Below are positions 22,995 to 31,746 of a stretch of DNA of 39,659 nt, piece by piece. The stretch lies in the NCBI GenBank assembly GCA_964483025.1, contig CAYZZT010000002.1, positions 1 through 39,659 of the forward strand, read 5' to 3'. A program made the position numbers and the translations under genes. This stretch comes from an uncultured Candidatus Saccharibacteria bacterium. Lineage in GTDB: Bacteria; Patescibacteriota; Minisyncoccia; Phycocordibacterales; CAIZIN01. Under the pieces are notes generated by a model. The model did not search any database and was not told the origin of the DNA. It saw nothing but the letters and a program-made list of their open reading frames with translations. Every line of letters begins with the position of its first letter. Within the stretch, counting starts at the first letter, position 1.

Positions 22995-23109
22995 GTTGAG
23001 TAGATTATAGCAAATTTTTAAGATTATTTCCTAAATTTTTATCACTTTGCATCCCGATATTCATCATCCAAATTACTCATTCTAGTTACTGTGTATTATA
23101 ATCAACTGT

Positions 23110-23280
23110 ATGAACCTTTCTAAACAAGCCAAAAAAGACCTGCTTAAGGTCCTCCAAAAAGAGATGGGTTTAGAGGCATCTAAGGATTTATCTGATGAAG
23201 ACCTAAATAAGATAGGTTCGCTTCTACTTACAGTTCTAGCAGAAAATTTAAAGATGAGACGATCGGAATCGCAGGTTTAA
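23110..23280 (+). CDS. 56-aa small ORF (not in the supplied track)
   Basis: I translated it as MNLSKQAKKDLLKVLQKEMGLEASKDLSDEDLNKIGSLLLTVLAENLKMRRSESQV. TATAAT at 23097-23102 lies just upstream. Weak resemblance to the ORF at 28081. Confidence 0.4.
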   Translation: MNLSKQAKKDLLKVLQKEMGLEASKDLSDEDLNKIGSLLLTVLAENLKMRRSESQV

Positions 23281-23361
23281 TTTAATATAAAAGCTCAACA
23301 CACTTTTTGATGATACTATTTTTCACCTCATAGGTTCATAAAATGCTATTATGTAATACAT

Positions 23362-24051
23362 ATGTTTATCGACTTCAAACTTCAACTAAAGTGGTTCACA
23401 AAAAGATTGCTTCAATTACGACTTACTAAAGTCAAGGGCTTCGGCTTACCTATCACTTTTGAACTTTCCGAAATCAGCAACAATTCAGTTGTTGAGTTTG
23501 ATTCAAACATGCCAGTTAAAGACCACTTGGAAGACTTAACGGAAGAGATAAAGGAACATTATATCCAGAATAGTAAAACCCCTGTTAGTGGCGATAACAT
23601 TAAATTGAAATATTCAGAAGATGGTACAAAAGTTAAAATTTATGGAATAAATAGTAATTTATTAAGATCCTTTATTATAGAGAAATTAGAAGATCAAACA
23701 AGTCTTTTTAGAACGACATCTAACGGTAGTTTGTTATACGTTGAAATTCCTACAAACGTAACATTAAGCGCAACAGAGTCTGATATTTTCAGCAAATTAA
23801 GATTAAATAAAGATAATGGGATTGGTACCTTATCGTATAGTGAAATATTTGAAATTTGTGCATCACACAAAGGCCCTACTCTAGATGAATTTATGAACCA
23901 TTACAACACCGATACTAAAAGAGATACCGTGTCTAGAAGTACAATTAGTTATATGTTGGCAAAAATTAGACGATCCCCCATGTTTGAAACTATTGAAAGT
24001 GACAAAATAATTAAAAATGTAACAAAAGAGGGTTATTTGTTATTAATGTAA
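23362..24051 (+). CDS. hypothetical protein (element-borne)
   Basis: 229-aa ORF. The C-terminal part (RDTVSRSTISYMLAKIRRS...KEGYLLL) could be a winged-helix, but this is not established. Confidence 0.55.
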   Translation: MFIDFKLQLKWFTKRLLQLRLTKVKGFGLPITFELSEISNNSVVEFDSNMPVKDHLEDLTEEIKEHYIQNSKTPVSGDNIKLKYSEDGTKVKIYGINSNLLRSFIIEKLEDQTSLFRTTSNGSLLYVEIPTNVTLSATESDIFSKLRLNKDNGIGTLSYSEIFEICASHKGPTLDEFMNHYNTDTKRDTVSRSTISYMLAKIRRSPMFETIESDKIIKNVTKEGYLLLM

Positions 24052-24056
24052 TATTC

Positions 24057-24077
24057 AAAAATCCTTGTGGGATTTTT
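24057..24077 (+). terminator. weak hairpin after 23362..24051
   Basis: AAAAATCC, 5-nt loop, GGATTTTT. Confidence 0.4.
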
Positions 24078-24150
24078 ATACGCCTTAAAATAAAGGTATT
24101 TTAGATATTATTCCACAAAGCATATTTATTCCGTCTCTAAAAGAAAAACC

Positions 24151-24175
24151 AAACCGCTTAAAATAGCGGTTTTTT
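24151..24175 (+). terminator. intrinsic terminator-like hairpin
   Basis: AAACCGC, 8-nt loop, GCGGTTT followed by TTTG. Confidence 0.5.
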
Positions 24176-24267
24176 GTTGCATACTACCTCACTTGACACA
24201 CAATTTATCGCCCTCTTCCTGGACAGGAAGGTCGATACATTAAAAAAATAAACAACTTAAATTAAAT

Positions 24268-24783
24268 ATGAAAAAAGAAAAAACATACAAATGGTCTGTA
24301 GCAAATAAAATTGCAATAGACATCATAAAACAACTGAAACCTTTTTGCAAGCGTGTAGAGATCGCTGGTTCTATTCGTCGGAAGAAATCAGATGTCGGCG
24401 ATATAGAAATAGTGGCTATTCCCCTTCCGTATAGCAGTGGAATGTTCGAGGACGGTTTAGCCAAGATAGTAAATCAATGGCAAAAGGTCAAAGGTGAACT
24501 TGAGTTTGGTAAAAGCAAGTATACCCAAAGAATCCTTCCTGAAGGAATCAAATTAGATTTATTTTTCGCGGAGGAAGATAACTGGGGATATACGCTGGCT
24601 CTAAGAACTGGTTCTGCAGATTACAGTCACAAAGTACTTGCCAGCGGTTGGGTCCGTCAAGGATTCAAAAGTATTGATGGCTATCTTTGGAAAGATGGCG
24701 AGCGATACGAAGTCAAAGAAGAACGAGACTTATTCAACATCGTAGGTATTCCTTATGTCGAACCAGAAAAACGAAACTTATAA
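24268..24783 (+). CDS. minimal family-X DNA polymerase (palm + thumb only, 171 aa)
   Basis: AGSIRRKKSDVGDIEIVA fits the hG[GS]x9-13Dh[DE]h nucleotidyltransferase signature. IKLDLFF supplies the third acidic residue. RTGSADYSHKV and the C-terminal EERDLFNIVGIPYVEPEKRN match the PolX thumb. Collinear with my recollection of the 174-aa ASFV Pol X. Confidence 0.8.
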   Translation: MKKEKTYKWSVANKIAIDIIKQLKPFCKRVEIAGSIRRKKSDVGDIEIVAIPLPYSSGMFEDGLAKIVNQWQKVKGELEFGKSKYTQRILPEGIKLDLFFAEEDNWGYTLALRTGSADYSHKVLASGWVRQGFKSIDGYLWKDGERYEVKEERDLFNIVGIPYVEPEKRNL

Positions 24784-24803
24784 ACAATAACCAAAACAAC
24801 ATT

Positions 24804-25109
24804 ATGAAATCAATTGAACGGAGGTTTAGAAAGGAGGAGAAAGATAATCCAAACCTGGGAGATTACATTGTCTTCGCTAAAGCAATAGCGGGGCAAGGGT
24901 TTTCCCAGGATAGGCTAGCTAGAGCCTTTAACAAACTTGTGCCGACTGACGATTACGACACCAAAGATAAGAAAGCGTTAATGGAACACCTCAATCTACT
25001 AAATGGTTTCCCGAAGCGTCAGAAAACAGGCCTTAACCGTACGAAAAACAAGGGGTTGGAGCCCGATAGAGGTGTCCCAAAAGCAAAAGAGGATATAAGT
25101 ATCAAGTAG
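24804..25109 (+). CDS. hypothetical basic protein
   Basis: First sensible ATG (M40) of ORF 24687..25109. The longer form would overlap the PolX gene by about 100 nt. Confidence 0.5.
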   Translation: MKSIERRFRKEEKDNPNLGDYIVFAKAIAGQGFSQDRLARAFNKLVPTDDYDTKDKKALMEHLNLLNGFPKRQKTGLNRTKNKGLEPDRGVPKAKEDISIK

Positions 25110-25361
25110 GTACTTATACCCTCTGAAATCAGCTCAAAAAATGAATTATTAAGAAATTAAACAATATAAACAATATGAAAAATAGAAACAATATGAAAAA
25201 TGACGAAACGACAAGTTTTTTTGCTAGAGATGGTGGAGACATACTCGATCAGTTTGACCGCGGGGTATTCGCTTACTATTTCGCGGAATTTCAAAAAAAT
25301 AGCCGGAGATATAGGAAGCAGCTTAAAAGAAGAAAGATTAATAAAATTAAAAATAACTAAA

Positions 25362-27854
25362 ATGGAAACAGAAAATATGACAACGATGCTCGAATGGGCA
25401 CTAGATTATCAGAAGAAAGGATGGAATGTGATTCCTGTTAACAAGGACAAGATTCCATTCATTGGATGGAAAGCATATACGGACAAGAAGGTCACAAGCG
25501 AAGAAATATATGCATGGTGGACTAAATGGCCAGATGCAAATATTGCTGTTATTACTGGTAAAATCTCAGGGATAGTCGTTCTGGATCTAGACAGCAAGCA
25601 CGGGAGGACTTCAAAAGAGTTCGTAATACCAGTAACTGCATGCGCAAAATCAGGTAATTTAGGTGAACATTTCTTTTTCAAGTATCCGCAAGGTCTTGAA
25701 ATAAAGTCAGGAGCCGCGATAAGTGGTGAAGGTGTCGACTGTCGCGGAACCTCTGGATATATAATATTAGCTCCCTCAGTAAATGCTCAAGGAAGACAGT
25801 ATGAATGGACTATTCCATTTGAGTCACAGGAAGATCTTGCAGAGATGCCCACTTGGTTTAAGAATCTAGTAACAGACACAAAGAGTGAGAAGAAGTGGCT
25901 ATTAGGCAAGGATGGAGTCTCTGAGGGGTCTAGGAACGATACAGCGACCTCAATGGCTGGCAAAATACTATCTTATACAGCTCCAGAATTATGGGAGGCT
26001 CTAGGATGGGAACAACTACAGATTTGGAATCAAAAGAACAATCCCCCACTTCCAATGATGGAGTTGAGGGCTGTTTGGGATGGAATAAAAAATAAACAAA
26101 ATAATAGTATCAAAGTAGAATCCTTTATCGATAAATGTAATTATCTAATTTCTCAAATTCCTAAAGACACCAAAAAAGAATCCATCATAAGTGTATTGGG
26201 TCCAACAATGAAGGTACTTGCATTAAATGCAGAAGCTCAAGAGGCAGAGATGTATATCCGAAATAAGATAAAGTCTGAATTGGATATTAAAGGTAAAGAT
26301 ATAGAATCAATAATAAAGCACTTCAAAACAATGCGAGTTATTATTCTGAAAGAAGCCGAAGCAGAAAAGAAGATAGCGGAACAGATAAAAGAGGAGGAAC
26401 CCCTAACAGAATTCGAATTACAAGAAGTCGATAAGATACTAAAGTCTCCGACACTGCTTTACGATATTTTAAAGATGGTTAAAAAGCTTGGTGTTGTCGG
26501 AGAGGAAAAGAATGTGTTGCTTCATTATATAATCTTCACTTCACGAAAACTGAAACAGCCACTATCGGCAACTGTTAAAGGAGATAGCTCTTCGGGTAAG
26601 TCGTATACATTACTTACAACAATTAAACTATTCCCGAAATCTGCATACATAGATCTAACGGACGCAACTCCGCAAAGCTTTTTCTATTGTCCCGATGATC
26701 ACTTCAGAAATAAAATAATTGTGATATTCGAGAAACATGGAGGAGAACGTGCTGATTATGCAATCAGAACTCTTCAATCCGAGGGAAAATTAAAGATTCA
26801 AGTTACAGAGAAGAATCCCGATACTGGGCAATTCGAAGCAAGAACAATTGAAAAAGAAGGTCCAACAGGTTTCGTTACGACGACGACAGCTTCATTGATT
26901 CATGCAGAAAATGATACTCGTAACATTTCGATGTTCCCCGATCAAAGCTCCGAGCAAACAGGTCGAGTATACGAATCTGTTGACTCCCGTTATTTAGGAG
27001 TTCAGCCGATTAATGAAAATACAATAAAGCCTTGGCGTAACGCGCAATTAGGATTAGAGCAGATGCCTGTATATATTCCTTTTGCTAGGAGCTTCAGAAA
27101 ATACTTCCCTACTCACATTGTTCGTACAAGAAGAGATTATGGTCATTTTCTTGCAATTGTCGAGACGGTAGCATTCCTGCATCAAAGGCAACGTGAAGTA
27201 GTCGAGCTTCATGGACAAAAGTATATCAGAGCAACTTTGGCCGATGCGTATATGGCAAAGATTATTGTCGAGGATTCATTATCAAAATCCATATATGAGT
27301 TGCCAGAAAAAACAATTGAAGTAATTGAAATGGCAAGAGTTCTGGTTGAAGAACTGAAAGCTGATGATTTTGGAGATGGAGATAAGATCAAATTCACAAT
27401 TTCAAGTCTGGCAAAGAAGCTAGGTTGGGATAGGGATACTGTTGGAAAGTGGTTAAAGCCTGCAATCAAAAAAGGTTATGCAAGTATCGAAATAGAAAGC
27501 AAGGGTTCCAAAGGGGCTGAATATGTTATAGAAGAGAAAGACCTCCCAGGGGATAACTTCCTGCCTTCAGTCGAAGATCTCTCAGCCGACAACCCAAAAG
27601 AGAGGCTGGAAAATATCTATAATCCTATTACAGGAGAAGTACGTAGTACCGATGCGCCGATACATTCAGAGACAGTAGAAAATATGAATGTGGATACAGT
27701 AGAGGTAGTGGAACACTCAGATAATACTCCTCTTGAAACCATCGGTGCATCGGTAGAAACAGAGCCAGCAGAGGACATTCCTGAATTTGACGATTTCGCT
27801 GAATTCATTAATTCGAATCCAGAAAAATACAGCGAGGACGAATTACCGTTCTAG
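25362..27854 (+). CDS. bifunctional primase-polymerase (Prim-Pol) with PriCT-like region and C-terminal P-loop NTPase
   Basis: GWNVIPV...IAVITGKISGIVVLDLDSKHG (Prim-Pol N-domain with DxD), GSRNDTATSMAGKIL (PriCT-like), Walker A VKGDSSSGKSYTL, acidic tail. An in-frame upstream ATG at 25200 is the alternative start. Confidence 0.85.
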   Translation: METENMTTMLEWALDYQKKGWNVIPVNKDKIPFIGWKAYTDKKVTSEEIYAWWTKWPDANIAVITGKISGIVVLDLDSKHGRTSKEFVIPVTACAKSGNLGEHFFFKYPQGLEIKSGAAISGEGVDCRGTSGYIILAPSVNAQGRQYEWTIPFESQEDLAEMPTWFKNLVTDTKSEKKWLLGKDGVSEGSRNDTATSMAGKILSYTAPELWEALGWEQLQIWNQKNNPPLPMMELRAVWDGIKNKQNNSIKVESFIDKCNYLISQIPKDTKKESIISVLGPTMKVLALNAEAQEAEMYIRNKIKSELDIKGKDIESIIKHFKTMRVIILKEAEAEKKIAEQIKEEEPLTEFELQEVDKILKSPTLLYDILKMVKKLGVVGEEKNVLLHYIIFTSRKLKQPLSATVKGDSSSGKSYTLLTTIKLFPKSAYIDLTDATPQSFFYCPDDHFRNKIIVIFEKHGGERADYAIRTLQSEGKLKIQVTEKNPDTGQFEARTIEKEGPTGFVTTTTASLIHAENDTRNISMFPDQSSEQTGRVYESVDSRYLGVQPINENTIKPWRNAQLGLEQMPVYIPFARSFRKYFPTHIVRTRRDYGHFLAIVETVAFLHQRQREVVELHGQKYIRATLADAYMAKIIVEDSLSKSIYELPEKTIEVIEMARVLVEELKADDFGDGDKIKFTISSLAKKLGWDRDTVGKWLKPAIKKGYASIEIESKGSKGAEYVIEEKDLPGDNFLPSVEDLSADNPKERLENIYNPITGEVRSTDAPIHSETVENMNVDTVEVVEHSDNTPLETIGASVETEPAEDIPEFDDFAEFINSNPEKYSEDELPF

Positions 27855-27900
27855 CTAGGTAACATTAATGACTTAAACAAATGAAAAAATACAGGAGGGA

Positions 27901-27909
27901 TGCTATAAT
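27901..27909 (+). promoter_or_regulatory. extended -10 promoter element TGcTATAAT
   Basis: Exact TGnTATAAT, 46 nt after the Prim-Pol stop and upstream of the recombinase operon. Confidence 0.45.
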
Positions 27910-27914
27910 AGGTA

Positions 27915-28065
27915 GGTTGTCCCAGTTAGATTATGCGAATGTTTATACAAGACTTATAATTAGACAGAAACGGAACTCAAAAGGGGCGATCTGCCAACTG
28001 TTTTGTCTAATCCTTGTGATTTGCATTATAGCTGGGACAACCAGATCGTCCCTTTTGGGTTTTTT
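27915..28065 (+). promoter_or_regulatory. structured leader with crossing helices and a terminator-like U-tract
   Basis: GGTTGTCCCAG (27915-25) pairs with CTGGGACAACC (28032-42). AAAAGGGGCGATCTG (27979-93) pairs with CAGATCGTCCCTTTT (28042-56). This is followed by GGGTTTTTT. Confidence 0.4.
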
Positions 28066-28080
28066 GATTTAACCAAAATC

Positions 28081-28338
28081 ATGAACAAGAATACTAAGAC
28101 AGATGTAAACAGTATGATTATATCGAAAGAGAGACTCGCACAATTTACAAAACTTATCAAATACAAAACTGGAAAGAAATTATCCGAAGCCGAATCACTA
28201 GAGCAAGCACAGACACTACTGCGAACAATGATAATTCTGTATCGTCCAATAAGTCAAGAAGAATACTTTTCTGCTATTGCTAAAAAAATGTTTATTAAGT
28301 CTCAGTCGAAAAAAATTATTAGAATTAATAAAAAATAA
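28081..28338 (+). CDS. small protein upstream of the recombinase (possible directionality/regulatory factor)
   Basis: 85 aa from the ATG at 28081, which lies 15 nt after the U-tract. Its stop (28336-38) is 1 nt before the recombinase ATG. Confidence 0.5.
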   Translation: MNKNTKTDVNSMIISKERLAQFTKLIKYKTGKKLSEAESLEQAQTLLRTMIILYRPISQEEYFSAIAKKMFIKSQSKKIIRINKK

Positions 28339-28339
28339 T

Positions 28340-29935
28340 ATGAAATACAAATATGAAGTATACGTTAGAAAATCTAGCGAGAGCAAAGAGAAGCAGGCTC
28401 TCTCAATACAATCACAAAAAGACAGTATTCAGAAACAATTCCCCGACATTAATATTGTTGATTGGATAGATGAGGAGAAAAGCGCCTTCAAACCATATAA
28501 CAGACCAAAGTTTGACGATATGATGAAAAGGGTACATACAGGAAAGATTGATGGCATTATAGCCTGGCATCCAGACCGACTATCTAGAAACGAGATAGAT
28601 GCGGCTAATATAACGTATGCATTAAGAAGTGGAATACTTAAAGATCTTAAGTTTGCCAGTTACGGCTTCAGTAATTCACCAGAGGGTATACAACAACTTC
28701 AAACCTCCCTTTCCTCTTCGCAATACTATTCAGCAAAGCTTGGCGTTGATGTTAGGCGTGGATTAGGAGACAAATTGGAAATGGGAAGAATGCCAGGTCT
28801 TGCCCCGATTGGTTATCTAAATACAAAACTGGCAACACGAGGAGAAAATAAAATTGTAGAGGATCCAGAACGATTCAATATTGTTCGTAAGATGTGGGAC
28901 TTAATACTTACAGGCAATTACAGTGCTCCGCAGATTAGAATAATTGCAACAAAAGAATGGGGCTTACTAACGCAGTCAAAGAAAAAGACAGGAGGAAAAC
29001 CTATTGGTTATACAACTATCTATAATATGTTTTCAAATCTCTTCTATACAGGAAACTTTATGTATAAAGGAATAATGTATAAAGGTGATCATAGGCCAAT
29101 GATAACTATGGCTGAGTTTGACCGTGTCCAGACACTTATCAAAGCACATGGAAGTCCAAGAGCAAAGACGTTCGACTTTGCTTATGGTTACGGAACAATG
29201 AAGTGCGGAGAATGCGGGCATTCATTGGTAGCTATTGAGAAGGTAAAATATATCAAGAGTGAACAAACAACAAAGGTATATACATTGTATCTTTGTTCTA
29301 ACAAGGGGAAAGTGACAAAGTGCAGTCAAAGGGATAATGTAAATGAAAAGATAATAGAGACACAAATCAAGGATGAAATACTCAAGTATTCAATTGATCC
29401 TGAATTCCTTAATTGGTCCTTTGATGTGATGAAAGATAATAACTTCATAGAGGTTATAACTGAAAAGGATATAAAAGATACTTTAGCTAAGACTCTTGAT
29501 AACAAACAAGAAGAGCTTAAGAGGTTAATCCAAATGGCAACAAAAGGGTTTCTTTCTGACGAAGAGTTTAAAACATCAAGAACTGAACTAGACAAAACAA
29601 TAGGTGATCTAAAAGTCCAACTAAGTGAAACTGAGGGAAGCAAAGATAAAGATCTTATGGAGCTAACTGAAAAAGCTTTCGTTTATTCAACATATGCGCT
29701 TGTTGCACTTGAAAATGGTAGTAAACAAAACAAAAAAGAAATATTCAAGGGATTGGGCATGAACCGAACCATAACAGACAAAAAACTCAATATTAGAGCC
29801 AATGATTGGTATTCAGAGATAAGAAAAGGTTACTTTTCTATCAGAGAGAAAATGAACGAGCTTGAACCAGAAATACGTTGTAAACAAAAGACCATCAAGG
29901 ATTTTGACGGTCTTCGTTTACTCTTGCGCGAGTGA
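28340..29935 (+). CDS. large serine recombinase (integrase)
   Basis: YVRKSSESKEKQALSIQSQ (catalytic Ser region), HPDRLSRN, recombinase domain, Cys-rich zinc ribbon CGECGH...CSNKGKVTKC, and a coiled-coil tail. The last 9 nt overlap the 3' end of tRNA-Asp. Confidence 0.9.
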   Translation: MKYKYEVYVRKSSESKEKQALSIQSQKDSIQKQFPDINIVDWIDEEKSAFKPYNRPKFDDMMKRVHTGKIDGIIAWHPDRLSRNEIDAANITYALRSGILKDLKFASYGFSNSPEGIQQLQTSLSSSQYYSAKLGVDVRRGLGDKLEMGRMPGLAPIGYLNTKLATRGENKIVEDPERFNIVRKMWDLILTGNYSAPQIRIIATKEWGLLTQSKKKTGGKPIGYTTIYNMFSNLFYTGNFMYKGIMYKGDHRPMITMAEFDRVQTLIKAHGSPRAKTFDFAYGYGTMKCGECGHSLVAIEKVKYIKSEQTTKVYTLYLCSNKGKVTKCSQRDNVNEKIIETQIKDEILKYSIDPEFLNWSFDVMKDNNFIEVITEKDIKDTLAKTLDNKQEELKRLIQMATKGFLSDEEFKTSRTELDKTIGDLKVQLSETEGSKDKDLMELTEKAFVYSTYALVALENGSKQNKKEIFKGLGMNRTITDKKLNIRANDWYSEIRKGYFSIREKMNELEPEIRCKQKTIKDFDGLRLLLRE

Positions 29936-30237
29936 TGGGACTCGAACCCACGGCCTTCCCCGTGCATTTATCCAATATTTACATATTGGCATGGACTATA
30001 TCATCATCATAATTATTTCTAATCTTAGATGTAAGGCGCTTCGAATATTTTTTTAAATACCCTACTCCCCGAAGGGATAGTCTCTGAACCTTCCAAATAT
30101 TACATTCGGCTTGGCTGCTGATTGCCTTTTCATTCCTGAAGAAGGTTTCCAGCAATTCACCTTATTTTCGACCAGACTTTCGTACTGGAAGCTGCCAATC
30201 GACAGGGGGACGCTCTAACCAGCTGAGCTACACCCGC
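29927..30237 (-). tRNA. tRNA-Asp(GUC) interrupted by a group I intron; exons 30237..30202 and 29964..29927
   Basis: The joined exons give GCGGGTG-TA-GCTC-AGCTGGTTA-GAGC-G-TCCCC-CTGTCAC-GGGGA-AGGCC-GTGGG-TTCGAGT-CCCAT-CACTCGC-G. All stems pair, with G4.U69 and one T-stem G.U. CCA is not encoded. Confidence 0.85.
29965..30201 (-). ncRNA. 237-nt group I intron (IC3-like) in the anticodon loop
   Basis: It follows U35 and ends in G. Core elements: P-like GAATTGCTGGAAA (30158-30146), Q-like AATCAGCAGCC (30123-30113), R-like GTTCAGAGACTAT (30089-30077), S-like GATATAGTCC (30002-29993). GACTA/TAGTC forms P7. GAAA, GGAA and GTAA tetraloop hairpins are present. Confidence 0.85.
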
Positions 30238-30887
30238 AATTTAATAAACCTTTCAAATACCTGCTTTTTCCTGTCTAAAAAAATTGCGTAACTACTATTA
30301 TACATATATTTATATAAATTCAAAGCTCCAAAGACAGCATATGTAAGTCGGTAATAATTTCCACTACCTTTTCTAATCACTCCATTTTGTGGAAAATATT
30401 TTAACGTTGTATCTCTTATTGATTCTAAAAATTCTTTTGTGCAAGAGGTAAATACCACCCTAATAGTTAAATTTGGGTTTTTGTTTTCTTTATGAGCATA
30501 TCCAACCCAAACATTACCATCACCATCAAAATATCCCCTCAAAAAAGAAAACCAAAACTTTACTGGAACAGGTGGAAGTCGAAGCCTTTTGGTTTTATTT
30601 GGAAAAACATTTAATTTACCCAAATCTTCAAACATCTCTTTGCTACCAATTTGAATACAGTAGTTATTTCCTCTTCCGCCTTTTTTGTTGGATATCTTAT
30701 GCTCAGACTTCATGGCTTTTTTGATATTATCTAGCAAATCATAATCTGCACTATACATGGCAATAAAATGTGCTCCCCTTTTATTTTTTATCAAATTTCC
30801 ATCAGCGCAAATAAAGCCCAAAACATATGCCATGTTGTCAGACCATTTTTTAAAAAAATCTTTATTGTATTTTTTATAAATAGGCAT
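30228..30887 (-). CDS. double-motif LAGLIDADG homing endonuclease, free-standing
   Basis: YVLGFICADGNL and FLRGYFDGDGNV motifs. ATG at 30887 (TTG at 30905 is possible). The last codons and the TAG stop overlap tRNA-Asp nt 1-10. Confidence 0.85.
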   Translation of the reverse strand: MPIYKKYNKDFFKKWSDNMAYVLGFICADGNLIKNKRGAHFIAMYSADYDLLDNIKKAMKSEHKISNKKGGRGNNYCIQIGSKEMFEDLGKLNVFPNKTKRLRLPPVPVKFWFSFLRGYFDGDGNVWVGYAHKENKNPNLTIRVVFTSCTKEFLESIRDTTLKYFPQNGVIRKGSGNYYRLTYAVFGALNLYKYMYNSSYAIFLDRKKQVFERFIKLRV

Positions 30888-30939
30888 AATATTATTATGC
30901 GTCAAAAATAAAAAGAGAAAATAATCAACTAACTTATTA

Positions 30940-31200
30940 TTATTTTCCTCGTGCGTTTAATTCAGCCTCATCAATTTCTTTTAATAAGTCACGCCACTCA
31001 CTTTTATGATTTTGGACACACACACCACGAGATCGTCCATCACAAATAGGACAATTCCCCATTTCAATATCTAGGATCTCTTTTCTATTTAATAATTCCT
31101 GTAATTTTAATTCTGCTGGTGATGGTTCTGTTGTTTTTGGTACAGTGGTTACCGTGGTTTGTTTGCTCTCTAAAATATTTAGAAAATTTGTTTGTTTCAT
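30940..31200 (-). CDS. small hypothetical protein with CxxC...C cluster
   Basis: 86-aa ORF containing GNCPICDGRSRGVCV. AGGAGG lies on the opposite strand nearby; no RBS was assessed. Confidence 0.45.
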   Translation of the reverse strand: MKQTNFLNILESKQTTVTTVPKTTEPSPAELKLQELLNRKEILDIEMGNCPICDGRSRGVCVQNHKSEWRDLLKEIDEAELNARGK

Positions 31201-31265
31201 AGGAGGATTATAACATAGAGCGTATCTTGAGAAAAATACTAAAATATGTTACTTTTAGTTCCAAT

Positions 31266-31339
31266 GTCGGGGTAGCTCAGGTGGTTAGAGCGGGCGCTTC
31301 ATAAGCGTCAGGTCGTGGGTTCAAGCCCCACCCTCGACA
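31266..31339 (+). tRNA. tRNA with CAT anticodon, elongator-type (Met, or Ile2 if lysidinylated)
   Basis: GTCGGGG-TA-GCTC-AGGTGGTTA-GAGC-G-GGCGC-TTCATAA-GCGTC-AGGTC-GTGGG-TTCAAGC-CCCAC-CCTCGAC-A. The 1:72 pair is G-C. Confidence 0.88.
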
Positions 31340-31395
31340 CAAAATATCTTACCTCCTTGCAATCCTCACTAAATTAGCGTACTATGTGTTCCTAT

Positions 31396-31467
31396 AGCGG
31401 GGTAGAGTAACGGTAACTCGCAAGGCTCATAACCTTGAGACTATTGGTTCGATTCCAGTCCCCGCAA
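31396..31467 (+). tRNA. tRNA with CAT anticodon, initiator-like (fMet)
   Basis: AGCGGGG...CTCATAA...ATTGG-TTCGATT-CCAGT-CCCCGCA-A. It has a 1:72 A x A mismatch and a CCCCGCAA 3' end like the E. coli initiator. Only two G-C pairs close the anticodon stem. Confidence 0.8.
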
Positions 31468-31522
31468 CATGTAAAACAAAAAATCCCCTCATGGGGATTT
31501 TTTGTTTTACATGTTGCGGGGA
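31459..31522. terminator. 30-bp perfect inverted repeat / terminator that includes the last 9 nt of tRNA-fMet
   Basis: TCCCCGCAACATGTAAAACAAAAAATCCCC, loop tcat, GGGGATTTTTTGTTTTACATGTTGCGGGGA. Confidence 0.7.
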
Positions 31523-31648
31523 AGAAAGCTCTGAGGGAGCTTTCGGCTGGAATCGAACAGCGGAGCGGGACCCAGATTAGTAAATCTGGGAGCGAGCTGG
31601 TGCCCAGAAAAATTTTTGTGACGACAAAAATTTATTCGCGGGCGATGT
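31523..31648 (+). other. hairpin-rich spacer between the two copies of the tRNA 3' end
   Basis: Hairpins GAAAGCTC/GAGCTTTC (31524-44), GCTG/CAGC (31546-61), CCCAGATT-agta-AATCTGGG (31571-90), and an A/T hairpin around 31607-31633. The listed ORFs here are probably spurious. Confidence 0.4.
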
Positions 31649-31663
31649 CCAGTCCCCGCAACA
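31649..31663 (+). repeat. direct repeat of the tRNA-fMet 3' end (CCAGTCCCCGCAACA = 31455-31469)
   Basis: Exact 15-nt match, preceded by a similar CGAT. Confidence 0.75.
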
Positions 31664-31708
31664 AAATACAAAAATGGCTTTCCCTTCAGGAAAGTCATTT
31701 TTGTATTT
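31664..31708. terminator. 20-bp hairpin after the second tRNA-end copy
   Basis: AAATACAAAAATGGCTTTCC, loop cttca, GGAAAGTCATTTTTGTATTT (one G.U). Confidence 0.65.
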
Positions 31709-31712
31709 ATAA

Positions 31713-31743
31713 CTAGAGCCTAAATGCTAATTGCTAGAGCCTA
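31713..31743 (+). repeat. two copies of CTAGAGCCTA downstream of 31747..32826
   Basis: Copies at 31713-22 and 31734-43. The same decamer occurs twice at 32984-33007. Confidence 0.6.
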
Positions 31744-31746
31744 CCC

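Follow-up and report, generated by a model that had tools for sequence, protein, structure and literature searches.

Collaborative (trans) homing beside group I introns without an open reading frame (ORF) has been described for the endonuclease F-CphI and the psbA intron of cyanophage S-PM2 and for mobE and nrd in a T-even-like phage (PMC3984707), and intronless homing for free-standing endonuclease genes such as the T4 seg and mob genes (PMC3984707, Fig. 5c). Here, we analyzed a 39,659-nt stretch of DNA (the window; contig CAYZZT010000002.1, assembly GCA_964483025.1) from an uncultured Candidatus Saccharibacteria bacterium, in which three distinct mobile-type elements meet on one tRNA-Asp(GTC) gene: a free-standing LAGLIDADG homing endonuclease gene at the 5' end, an ORF-less intron of group I in the anticodon, and a large serine recombinase gene at the 3' end. 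A first-pass annotation of the window had pointed to this triple occupancy, and every coordinate that it gave for the tRNA, the endonuclease ORF, and the recombinase ORF was reproduced by minus-strand reading, ARAGORN, Rfam, and Pfam. We consider it probable that tRNA-Asp(GUC) is a shared landing site of three independent selfish elements, namely a mobile free-standing endonuclease gene specialized on the spacer between tRNA-Met and tRNA-Asp, the intron, and an island carrying the recombinase.

As in the F-CphI/psbA and mobE/nrd pairs, the endonuclease gene lies outside the intron and adjoins the intron-bearing gene, and both elements have a single conserved gene as their common target, often being inherited together. 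Unlike in those pairs, the host is a cellular chromosome of Patescibacteria (Paceibacteria type), the protein is of the LAGLIDADG type, the target is a tRNA, and the ORF is fused to the tRNA 5' end. The well-studied free-standing phage endonucleases are mostly of the GIY-YIG and HNH types; to our knowledge, F-CphI is not a LAGLIDADG enzyme, and free-standing LAGLIDADG homing endonuclease genes are rare in bacteria. With the intronless homing of the T4 seg and mob genes, the locus would share a cut near the insertion point of the endonuclease-free allele, repair copying, and co-conversion of a flanking marker, here the intron. Differences lie in the family, the host, and the target, and in an insertion flanked by two tRNA genes, one of which contains the stop codon; the process is read here from sequence.

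LAGLIDADG genes have been reported from rRNA-gene insertions in the Candidate Phyla Radiation (CPR)/Patescibacteria (Tsurumaki et al. 2024, PMC11270868, as cited in PMC11809585; also PMC8172020). These enzymes and the archaeal rRNA-intron enzyme I-Tsp061I (2DCH) belong to the same superfamily as the protein of the window and share its monomeric, double-motif form, and the CPR enzymes come from the same host phylum. However, they are encoded inside an rRNA intervening sequence, whereas the gene of the window adjoins a tRNA and is not contained in an intron.

Group I introns in CPR tRNAs have been mentioned only in passing (PMC8172020). Described bacterial tRNA group I introns include those of cyanobacterial tRNA-Leu(UAA) and tRNA-fMet, Azoarcus tRNA-Ile, and Agrobacterium tRNA-Arg (PMC3984707), and the intron-encoded endonuclease of Synechocystis tRNA-fMet (Bonocora and Shub 2001, as cited in PMC3984707) is a precedent for an endonuclease tied to a tRNA gene. 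The intron of the window resembles them: it is small, belongs to group I, and interrupts the anticodon loop, its splice site is preceded by a U and its last base is G, and it is ORF-less, as most of them are. It differs in its host tRNA-Asp(GUC), in the presence of two intron lineages at one site, and in having its linked endonuclease gene outside the intron. The 2014 review of bacterial group I introns nowhere mentions tRNA-Asp (PMC3984707), and full-text literature searches returned no description of a bacterial tRNA-Asp group I intron, of this endonuclease family, or of a LAGLIDADG gene fused to a tRNA 5' end or sharing its stop codon with a tRNA. A widespread family of free-standing LAGLIDADG genes on the Paceibacteria tRNA-Met/tRNA-Asp spacer has apparently gone undescribed so far.

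Anatomy of the tRNA-Asp locus

The tRNA-Asp(GTC) gene, intron included, occupies positions 30237-29927 of the minus strand (311 nt). Exon 1 (nt 1-35, last base U35) is GCGGGTGTAGCTCAGCTGGTTAGAGCGTCCCCCTGT (30237-30202, 36 nt) with the 3' end ...CCCCCTGT, and exon 2 (nt 36-73, CCA not encoded) is CACGGGGAAGGCCGTGGGTTCGAGTCCCATCACTCGCG (29964-29927, 38 nt). Between anticodon nt 35 and 36 lies a 237-nt intron (30201-29965), whose boundaries were fixed by the requirement that the anticodon loop CUGUCAC be rebuilt when the exons are joined. Joining them yielded a clean cloverleaf of 74-75 nt, identified by ARAGORN as tRNA-Asp(GTC). With default settings ARAGORN overlooked the gene, which was called once the insert was removed or long introns were allowed. 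Default tRNA finders will miss tRNA-Asp in such genomes, where, in addition, the endonuclease ORF overlaps the tRNA gene.

The intron matched Rfam RF00028 (Intron_gpI) with 84.4 bits and E = 3e-20 (gathering score 50), a match to the group I catalytic core (P3-P9). P1 pairs exon CUGU with intron GCAG, with a U.G pair at the splice site where exon 1 ends in U, and the terminal base of the intron is G (...AAATG). No credible ORF was found in the 237 nt, in line with the first-pass view of an intron that encodes no endonuclease. The intron presumably self-splices, restoring tRNA-Asp. Compared loci from other genomes are given here as L-numbers; the introns of L003-L006 were 82-92% identical to that of the window. 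In an independent public run, an 813-nt contig covered positions 29682-30494 with no mismatch. A chimeric assembly at tRNA-Asp was rejected, as this independent contig crosses the junction and the same junction occurs in L005, L041, and L295.

The endonuclease gene (30887-30228, minus strand) encodes 219 aa plus a stop codon and matched Pfam LAGLIDADG_3 (E = 3e-10). LAGLIDADG genes usually lie within a group I intron, an archaeal intron, or an intein; this one lies upstream of exon 1, outside the intron and with no intein context, and is free-standing. The ORF overlaps nt 1-10 of tRNA-Asp, which hold its last three sense codons and TAG; its 3' codons read ...AAA TTG CGG GTG TAG, and the stop codon (30230-30228) coincides with U8-A9-G10 of the tRNA.

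Several features suggested a functional protein. Motif 1 is VLGFICADG (D29) and motif 2 LRGYFDGDG (D123), and both catalytic Asp residues were invariant among 56 locus-derived and 42 database homologues. The AlphaFold2 model (pLDDT 91, pTM 0.89) showed two alpha-beta-beta-alpha-beta-beta-alpha halves in the canonical monomeric LAGLIDADG fold. The top Foldseek matches were all LAGLIDADG enzymes or LAGLIDADG-containing inteins, with I-Tsp061I (E = 1.5e-11) in first place and I-AniI, E-DreI/I-DmoI, and the I-OnuI family among the others, and I-Tsp061I was also the only significant sequence match (E = 2e-4, ~23% identity). The ratio of nonsynonymous to synonymous substitution rates (dN/dS) was 0.08-0.29 in nine pairs, some of them from loci with an intron-less tRNA-Asp. 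With its invariant Asp residues, predicted fold, and purifying selection, the endonuclease looks like a working enzyme, and by sequence it is not the dead protein that would have undermined the first-pass proposal.

The family is large: a word-indexed search returned 1,487 proteins, and an exhaustive search of 50%-identity clusters returned 74 representatives at E <= 1e-30 and 3,183 at E <= 1e-10. It might supply compact LAGLIDADG scaffolds (~220 aa) whose targets have presumably diverged while remaining related.

Conservation, linkage, and loss of the endonuclease gene

Scanning a genome collection with one genome per species for relatives of the endonuclease yielded 67 loci, of which 63 were assessable. 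In 60 of these 63, the endonuclease gene was directly followed by tRNA-Asp(GTC) in the same orientation, and the family occupied the same spot beside tRNA-Asp in well over a hundred related genomes. The common context was gatA, an unknown gene, one or two tRNA-Met(CAT) genes, the endonuclease gene, and tRNA-Asp, with the ORF of the relatives usually ending inside the tRNA as ...AAA ATG/TTG CGG NNG TAG followed by CTCA. A second, independent set, found through the common intron type described below, comprised 94 loci with enough flanking sequence. Among its 58 intact copies abutting or overlapping the tRNA, the stop codon fell at tRNA nt 8-10 in 41, at a TAG in the D-loop in another frame in 7, and 4-21 nt upstream of the tRNA in 10. 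The junction between endonuclease gene and tRNA-Asp was kept although the proteins are only ~45-55% identical, and it was seen in dozens of independent assemblies. The endonuclease gene is a family-wide, position-locked resident of the tRNA-Met/tRNA-Asp spacer, and not an occasional invader of a promoter region, against the alternative that the first-pass annotation had offered.

Variants of this arrangement were also seen. Loci L014, L017, L030, L032, and L033 carried an ORF in the other frame, which reads through the acceptor stem and D-stem to the D-loop TAG (GGTTAGAGC or CGGTAGAGC). The most distant bacterial relatives, L057 and L065 (35-41% identity), lay ~70 nt upstream of tRNA-Cys(GCA) (~3700-3770 in L057, ~4884-4955 in L065), which hints that the family has retargeted between tRNA genes. 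A nanoarchaeal match, L063, had no tRNA downstream.

Two group I intron lineages share a single tRNA-Asp site, after U35. The window type, with 82-84 bits in Rfam and a core like those of other bacterial tRNA introns, was found in the sample only in the window and L003-L006, which form one endonuclease subclade. The common type scored 52.2 bits in a permissive Rfam scan of the insert alone and was missed at the gathering threshold over whole loci; an exact-pattern scan detected it in 109 stretches, and nearly all of those with a readable upstream exon were tRNA-Asp. An endonuclease gene or its remnant accompanied the common type in 89 of 94 loci. When loci were collected by an exon-1 pattern blind to both elements, the gene stood beside four of five intron-bearing and none of ~100 intron-less tRNA-Asp genes, although many of the intron-less genes were not from Paceibacteria, so that this association is confounded by taxonomy. 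Gene and intron were jointly of high similarity between the window and L003-L005. The two elements do co-vary, in support of the first-pass annotation.

They are nonetheless separable. Among the 60 endonuclease-linked tRNA-Asp genes, 34 were intron-bearing and 26 intron-less, and the two states were interspersed in the endonuclease tree. Approximately 22 of the 26 intron-less loci had an intact endonuclease ORF, and anticodon stems (e.g., CTCGC/GCGAG and CCCGC/GCGGG) were identical between intron-less endonuclease-positive loci and the exons of intron-bearing alleles. The intron, in turn, persisted in five loci without the gene and also where the gene had decayed. Only 25 bp separate the endonuclease stop codon from the intron insertion site, a distance short enough for one repair tract to span both, and the simplest reading is that tight physical linkage explains the co-occurrence, with the endonuclease gene as an autonomous partner. 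Separately, the tRNA-Asp introns of L033 and L072 combined a window-type 5' end (CGATTGGCAGC or CGATTAGGCAGC) with a common-type core, which suggests either that the two intron lineages have recombined or that P1 has converged.

The 94 common-type intron loci comprised the 58 intact ORFs mentioned above, 9 further full-length matches, 22 loci classed as remnants, and 5 without the gene. The five empty loci consisted of just tRNA-Met, a spacer of 25-90 nt, and tRNA-Asp. After removal of three chance matches to an N-terminal extension, ~19 of the 22 remnants were real, and nearly all of these kept the C-terminal 35-150 codons adjoining tRNA-Asp and resembled nested 5' deletions. Decayed copies keeping the 3' part were noted in L188, L193, L195, L197, L198, L202, L208, L209, and L212, as well as in L227-L229, L249, L257, L262, L270, L276, and L277. 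The way in which deletions arise may account for this retention, or the tRNA may by now use the 3' end of the gene as its leader.

Endonuclease identity was uncorrelated with the identity of gatA, ~2 kb away (Spearman 0.02, 496 pairs). Compared with L003, the window showed 80% aa identity in the endonuclease, 92% nt identity in the intron, and 58% aa identity in GatA; compared with L007, L010, L016, and L022, it showed 51-55% aa identity in the endonuclease, a different intron type, and 59-63% aa identity in GatA. By gatA, therefore, L003 is no nearer to the window than genomes with a far more divergent endonuclease. DNA similarity between the window and L003, L004, and L006 was limited to positions 29924-30887, that is, from the endonuclease start codon to 3 nt beyond the tRNA 3' end. 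Gene, tRNA, and intron thus form one high-similarity unit between otherwise distant genomes, which agrees with the first-pass idea of elements moving together and fits a transfer of the whole cassette between lineages. The patchy occurrence, the degenerate copies, and the discordance with host gatA are as expected of a homing cycle.

No promoter stood out convincingly. A promoter scan of 29700-31500 gave fewer sites than shuffled sequence and none upstream of the endonuclease gene or tRNA-Asp, and a candidate promoter inside the endonuclease 3' end was dropped, since Lys codons account for its AT-rich stretch. Most relatives have the endonuclease gene embedded in a series of tRNA genes of the same strand, an arrangement suggestive of co-transcription. 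Two exact 151-nt contigs (29952-30101 and 30099-30249) from one metatranscriptome resemble an unspliced precursor; they extend by 12 nt into the 3' end of the endonuclease ORF, and no coverage was seen for the remainder of that gene or for the recombinase. These contigs are a hint that the endonuclease gene may be co-transcribed with the tRNA precursor. Standard RNA-seq rarely captures mature tRNA.

A serine-recombinase island at the tRNA 3' end

The large serine recombinase (integrase) gene occupies positions 28340-29935 of the plus strand, convergent with tRNA-Asp. Its 531-aa product contains the Pfam domains Resolvase (PF00239), Recombinase (PF07508), and Zn_ribbon_recom (PF13408) and matched the PHROG 95 integrase family with E = 6e-64. 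The frame is open from a TTG at 28277, the likely start being the ATG at 28340, and the N-terminus includes YVRKSSES, which contains the serine-bearing motif. The ORF overlaps the 3' acceptor strand of tRNA-Asp by 9 nt (29927-29935), and in both the window and L295 it ends in ...(L/M)-R-E-stop on the complement of that strand (GCGCGAGTGA). Directly after the tRNA, within the tail of the recombinase ORF, lies an island-borne hairpin with a T-run (29882-29914, minus strand) that resembles a terminator for the tRNA transcript; it was kept in the island-bearing L041 and missing from the island-free L003, L004, and L006.

Recombinase homologues convergent with and overlapping the tRNA-Asp 3' end were found in L005, L041, and L295. 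The endonuclease of L005 was 76% identical to that of the window and the endonuclease of L041 49%. L295 carried a 64% identical recombinase with neither an endonuclease gene nor an intron, which shows that the island is independent of both. Cargo differed between the islands, with L295 sharing only the recombinase and a 111-aa ORF with the island of the window. The conserved island edge read ...GCGCA followed by nnAGTrAACGAAG..., with the edge between the two, then the hairpin and T-run, then ...TTTACAACGTATTTCTGGTTCA. The island-free relatives L003, L004, and L006 part from the window at 29924, a few nt from the terminal GCGCA of the tRNA. Integration has thus recurred at the same site, and empty sites exist in relatives, which makes the tRNA-Asp 3' end an attachment site used repeatedly by a serine recombinase in Patescibacteria.

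The putative integrated element spans ~7 kb (23000-29926) with plus-strand genes; its right end lies at the tRNA-Asp 3' terminus (~29921-29927), and its left boundary at ~23000 was placed solely from a switch in gene strand and GC skew. Among its genes are one for an 884-aa Prim-Pol/primase-like protein (25200-27854, plus strand; Pfam Prim-Pol and PriCT_1, PHROG primase families) and, just upstream of the recombinase, the 111-aa ORF (28003-28338, plus strand), which showed 48% tblastx identity over 75 aa with L295 and no Pfam or PHROG match. An accessory or directionality factor would be a guess at its role.

Searches of the window revealed no direct-repeat remnant of the tRNA 3' end and no inverted copy of the island-proximal arm; the lack of a long repeat at the other end is as expected for a serine recombinase. 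A 20-mer from the empty-site flank of a related strain (run X6) was also absent from the window, which indicates a lack of synteny in the left flank. In runs X1-X4, contigs had a depth of ~5x over 1-29.7 kb and ~13x to the right of tRNA-Asp, with the drop exactly at the tRNA, and one assembly is broken at 29924; this marks the tRNA-Asp 3' end as a breakpoint that varies between strains. Depth does not delimit the island, as the whole of 1-29.7 kb is at ~5x. The same pattern indicates at least two strains with a common right flank that differ to the left of the tRNA across a stretch far longer than the 7-kb island. No relatives of the recombinase were found in viral contigs, and single-sequence patterns found two in genome contigs.

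Large serine recombinases of the phiC31 and Bxb1 type are the integrases of prophages and integrative elements, and integration at a tRNA 3' terminus is better known for tyrosine integrases. The recombinase of the window shares with the phiC31/Bxb1 type the Resolvase, Recombinase, and zinc-ribbon architecture, the location of its gene at the element edge by the attachment site, and the absence of a long direct repeat. It differs in integrating at a tRNA 3' terminus with an ORF that reads across the junction into the tRNA, and in a cargo that is a small Prim-Pol replicon and not a recognizable phage.

Interpretation and genomic setting

If tRNA-Asp is a landing site of three independent elements, the endonuclease ORF, packed into the tRNA and borrowing U8-A9-G10 as its stop codon, would most likely be transcribed within the tRNA precursor. 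The endonuclease would cut endonuclease-free copies of the locus within the 5' half of tRNA-Asp or beside it, and its gene would then be copied in by double-strand-break repair, with the flanking tRNA genes as conserved homology arms. Once fixed in a lineage, the gene would decay by 5' deletions and eventually be lost. The intron would be co-converted owing to its closeness and travel along, with neither element needing the other. The ~7-kb element with its recombinase and Prim-Pol replication protein would have integrated exactly at the tRNA 3' terminus, leaving the tRNA intact, supplying it with a new terminator-like hairpin, and using the site independently of gene and intron.

Several points weigh against this account. 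The gatA comparison is narrow (most pairs are 50-65% identical), so the lack of correlation is weak alone, and the one-genome-per-species collection contained no close pair of filled and empty loci from which to read insertion boundaries. The empty sites share no conserved sequence upstream of tRNA-Asp; a target spanning the insertion point would therefore be half unconserved, and with a target wholly within the tRNA, endonuclease-bearing genomes would need some other immunity. The RNA evidence comprises two low-depth contigs that could be DNA carry-over, and repeat and pattern searches of the window located neither the left end of the island nor its attachment sites. Long retention at one locus under strong purifying selection would, moreover, also be expected of a host-beneficial gene. 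Such a gene might be a vertically inherited, domesticated host factor, e.g., a maturase for ORF-less tRNA introns or an expression factor for the tRNA operon. Consistent with this, locus and synteny are kept across many Paceibacteria lineages, other tRNA introns (tRNA-Met, tRNA-Leu, and tRNA-Thr) occur near the gene even where tRNA-Asp is intron-less, and the bifunctional endonuclease/maturase I-AniI is among the best structural matches. However, 22 loci with a remnant and 5 without the gene still contain the tRNA-Asp intron, which can therefore do without the protein; neither catalytic Asp residue varies, although a maturase would not need them; the similarity of the endonuclease does not follow that of gatA; and many Patescibacteria tRNA-Asp loci lack the gene. 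We regard a host factor as improbable.

Strict collaborative homing would make gene and intron an obligate pair, as with F-CphI and the psbA intron: the target would be the anticodon-loop region of intron-less tRNA-Asp, and the intron would protect against cleavage. The first-pass annotation had proposed an endonuclease that cuts intron-less tRNA-Asp and drags the intron along, and the 25-bp spacing, the high co-occurrence in the common-type loci, the blind exon-1 scan, and the restriction of the window-type intron to one endonuclease subclade all speak for such a pairing. Yet tight physical linkage alone would yield co-occurrence, and the blind scan is weakened by its taxonomic imbalance. The intron-less loci with intact ORFs, invariant residues, and low dN/dS bear the same anticodon stems and would be self-targets, so an additional source of immunity would be required; a family so often without the intron is not what immunity by intron predicts. 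In the form first proposed, the idea was not supported by this comparison, and we think strict collaborative homing unlikely, though less so than a host factor. Coincidental crowding in a compact genome, with trivial overlaps and an inert relic of an endonuclease gene, would suit the compactness of Patescibacteria genomes, in which short convergent or tandem overlaps are common, and the fact that no promoter-like or regulatory signal stood out in the region. It is largely refuted already by the comparative data, since the endonuclease/tRNA junction is kept across such divergent proteins, purifying selection rules out a relic, and four genomes that differ in island cargo share the recombinase/tRNA junction; we give it hardly any weight.

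A broader possibility, which we put forward tentatively and with some doubt, is that tRNA-operon spacers are a previously undescribed niche for homing endonuclease genes, including the tRNA-fused frame, the 3' part as a leader, and retargeting. If so, two universally conserved tRNA genes would give both the target and the homology arms for homing between distant species. Cleavage by ribonuclease P at tRNA nt +1 would remove the endonuclease stop codon, and only the unprocessed precursor would yield full-length protein; the processed mRNA would be a non-stop message handled by transfer-messenger RNA, and endonuclease dosage would be tied to tRNA processing. The 3' parts retained in decayed copies would have been co-opted as a tRNA-Asp leader, and the relatives upstream of tRNA-Cys would mean that the family has moved from one tRNA gene to another. 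The family shows every state (filled, decayed, empty, with and without intron) and is thereby a natural experiment on the pairing of an endonuclease gene with an ORF-less intron, on how far co-conversion reaches to a passenger intron, and on nuclease expression inside a tRNA precursor.

The genes flanking the locus in the window include gatA, NAD-dependent ligA, pilins, and glycosyltransferases. The related loci came from Patescibacteria metagenome-assembled genomes, mostly of the Paceibacteria/Parcubacteria type, and the sequence of the window was found in freshwater and lake metagenomes. Two tRNA-Met(CAT) genes (31266-31340 and 31396-31468, plus strand) were identified by ARAGORN and Rfam. 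This pair is inverted in the window, whereas in most relatives among the 67 loci tRNA-Met shares the strand of the endonuclease gene and precedes it by 40-130 nt. One contig from a related strain (run X6) connects 30931 with 31345, the two lying on opposite strands, which places tRNA-Met directly upstream of the endonuclease gene on the same strand. Taken with the usual arrangement in relatives, this contig suggests that an 86-aa ORF (30940-31200) and the inverted pair of tRNA-Met genes arose by local inversion or insertion. The inverted arrangement was also present in L002.

Between tRNA-Met and a 359-aa gene, an unannotated, highly structured region (31470-31746) holds a long hairpin GTTGCGGGGA...TCCCCGCAAC, a T-loop-like GTTCGATTCCAGCC, and a terminator-like hairpin at 31481-31500. 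Rfam gave no family match for this region except spurious miRNA matches. Its contig depth was ~3x that of its flanks in two metagenomes, which indicates that it is common to several organisms.

Further long group I-like introns were found in neighboring tRNA genes by ARAGORN with introns allowed, two of them confirmed by Rfam. They lay in tRNA-Met(CAT) in L012, L021, L039, L047, L049, L051, L060, L061, and L195, in tRNA-Leu(CAA/CAG) in L032, L038, L041, L058, L190, and L285, and in tRNA-Thr(GGT) in L009; the coordinates listed include 3392-3604 in L003 and 3572-3788 in L060. tRNA introns seem to be common in the Paceibacteria clade.

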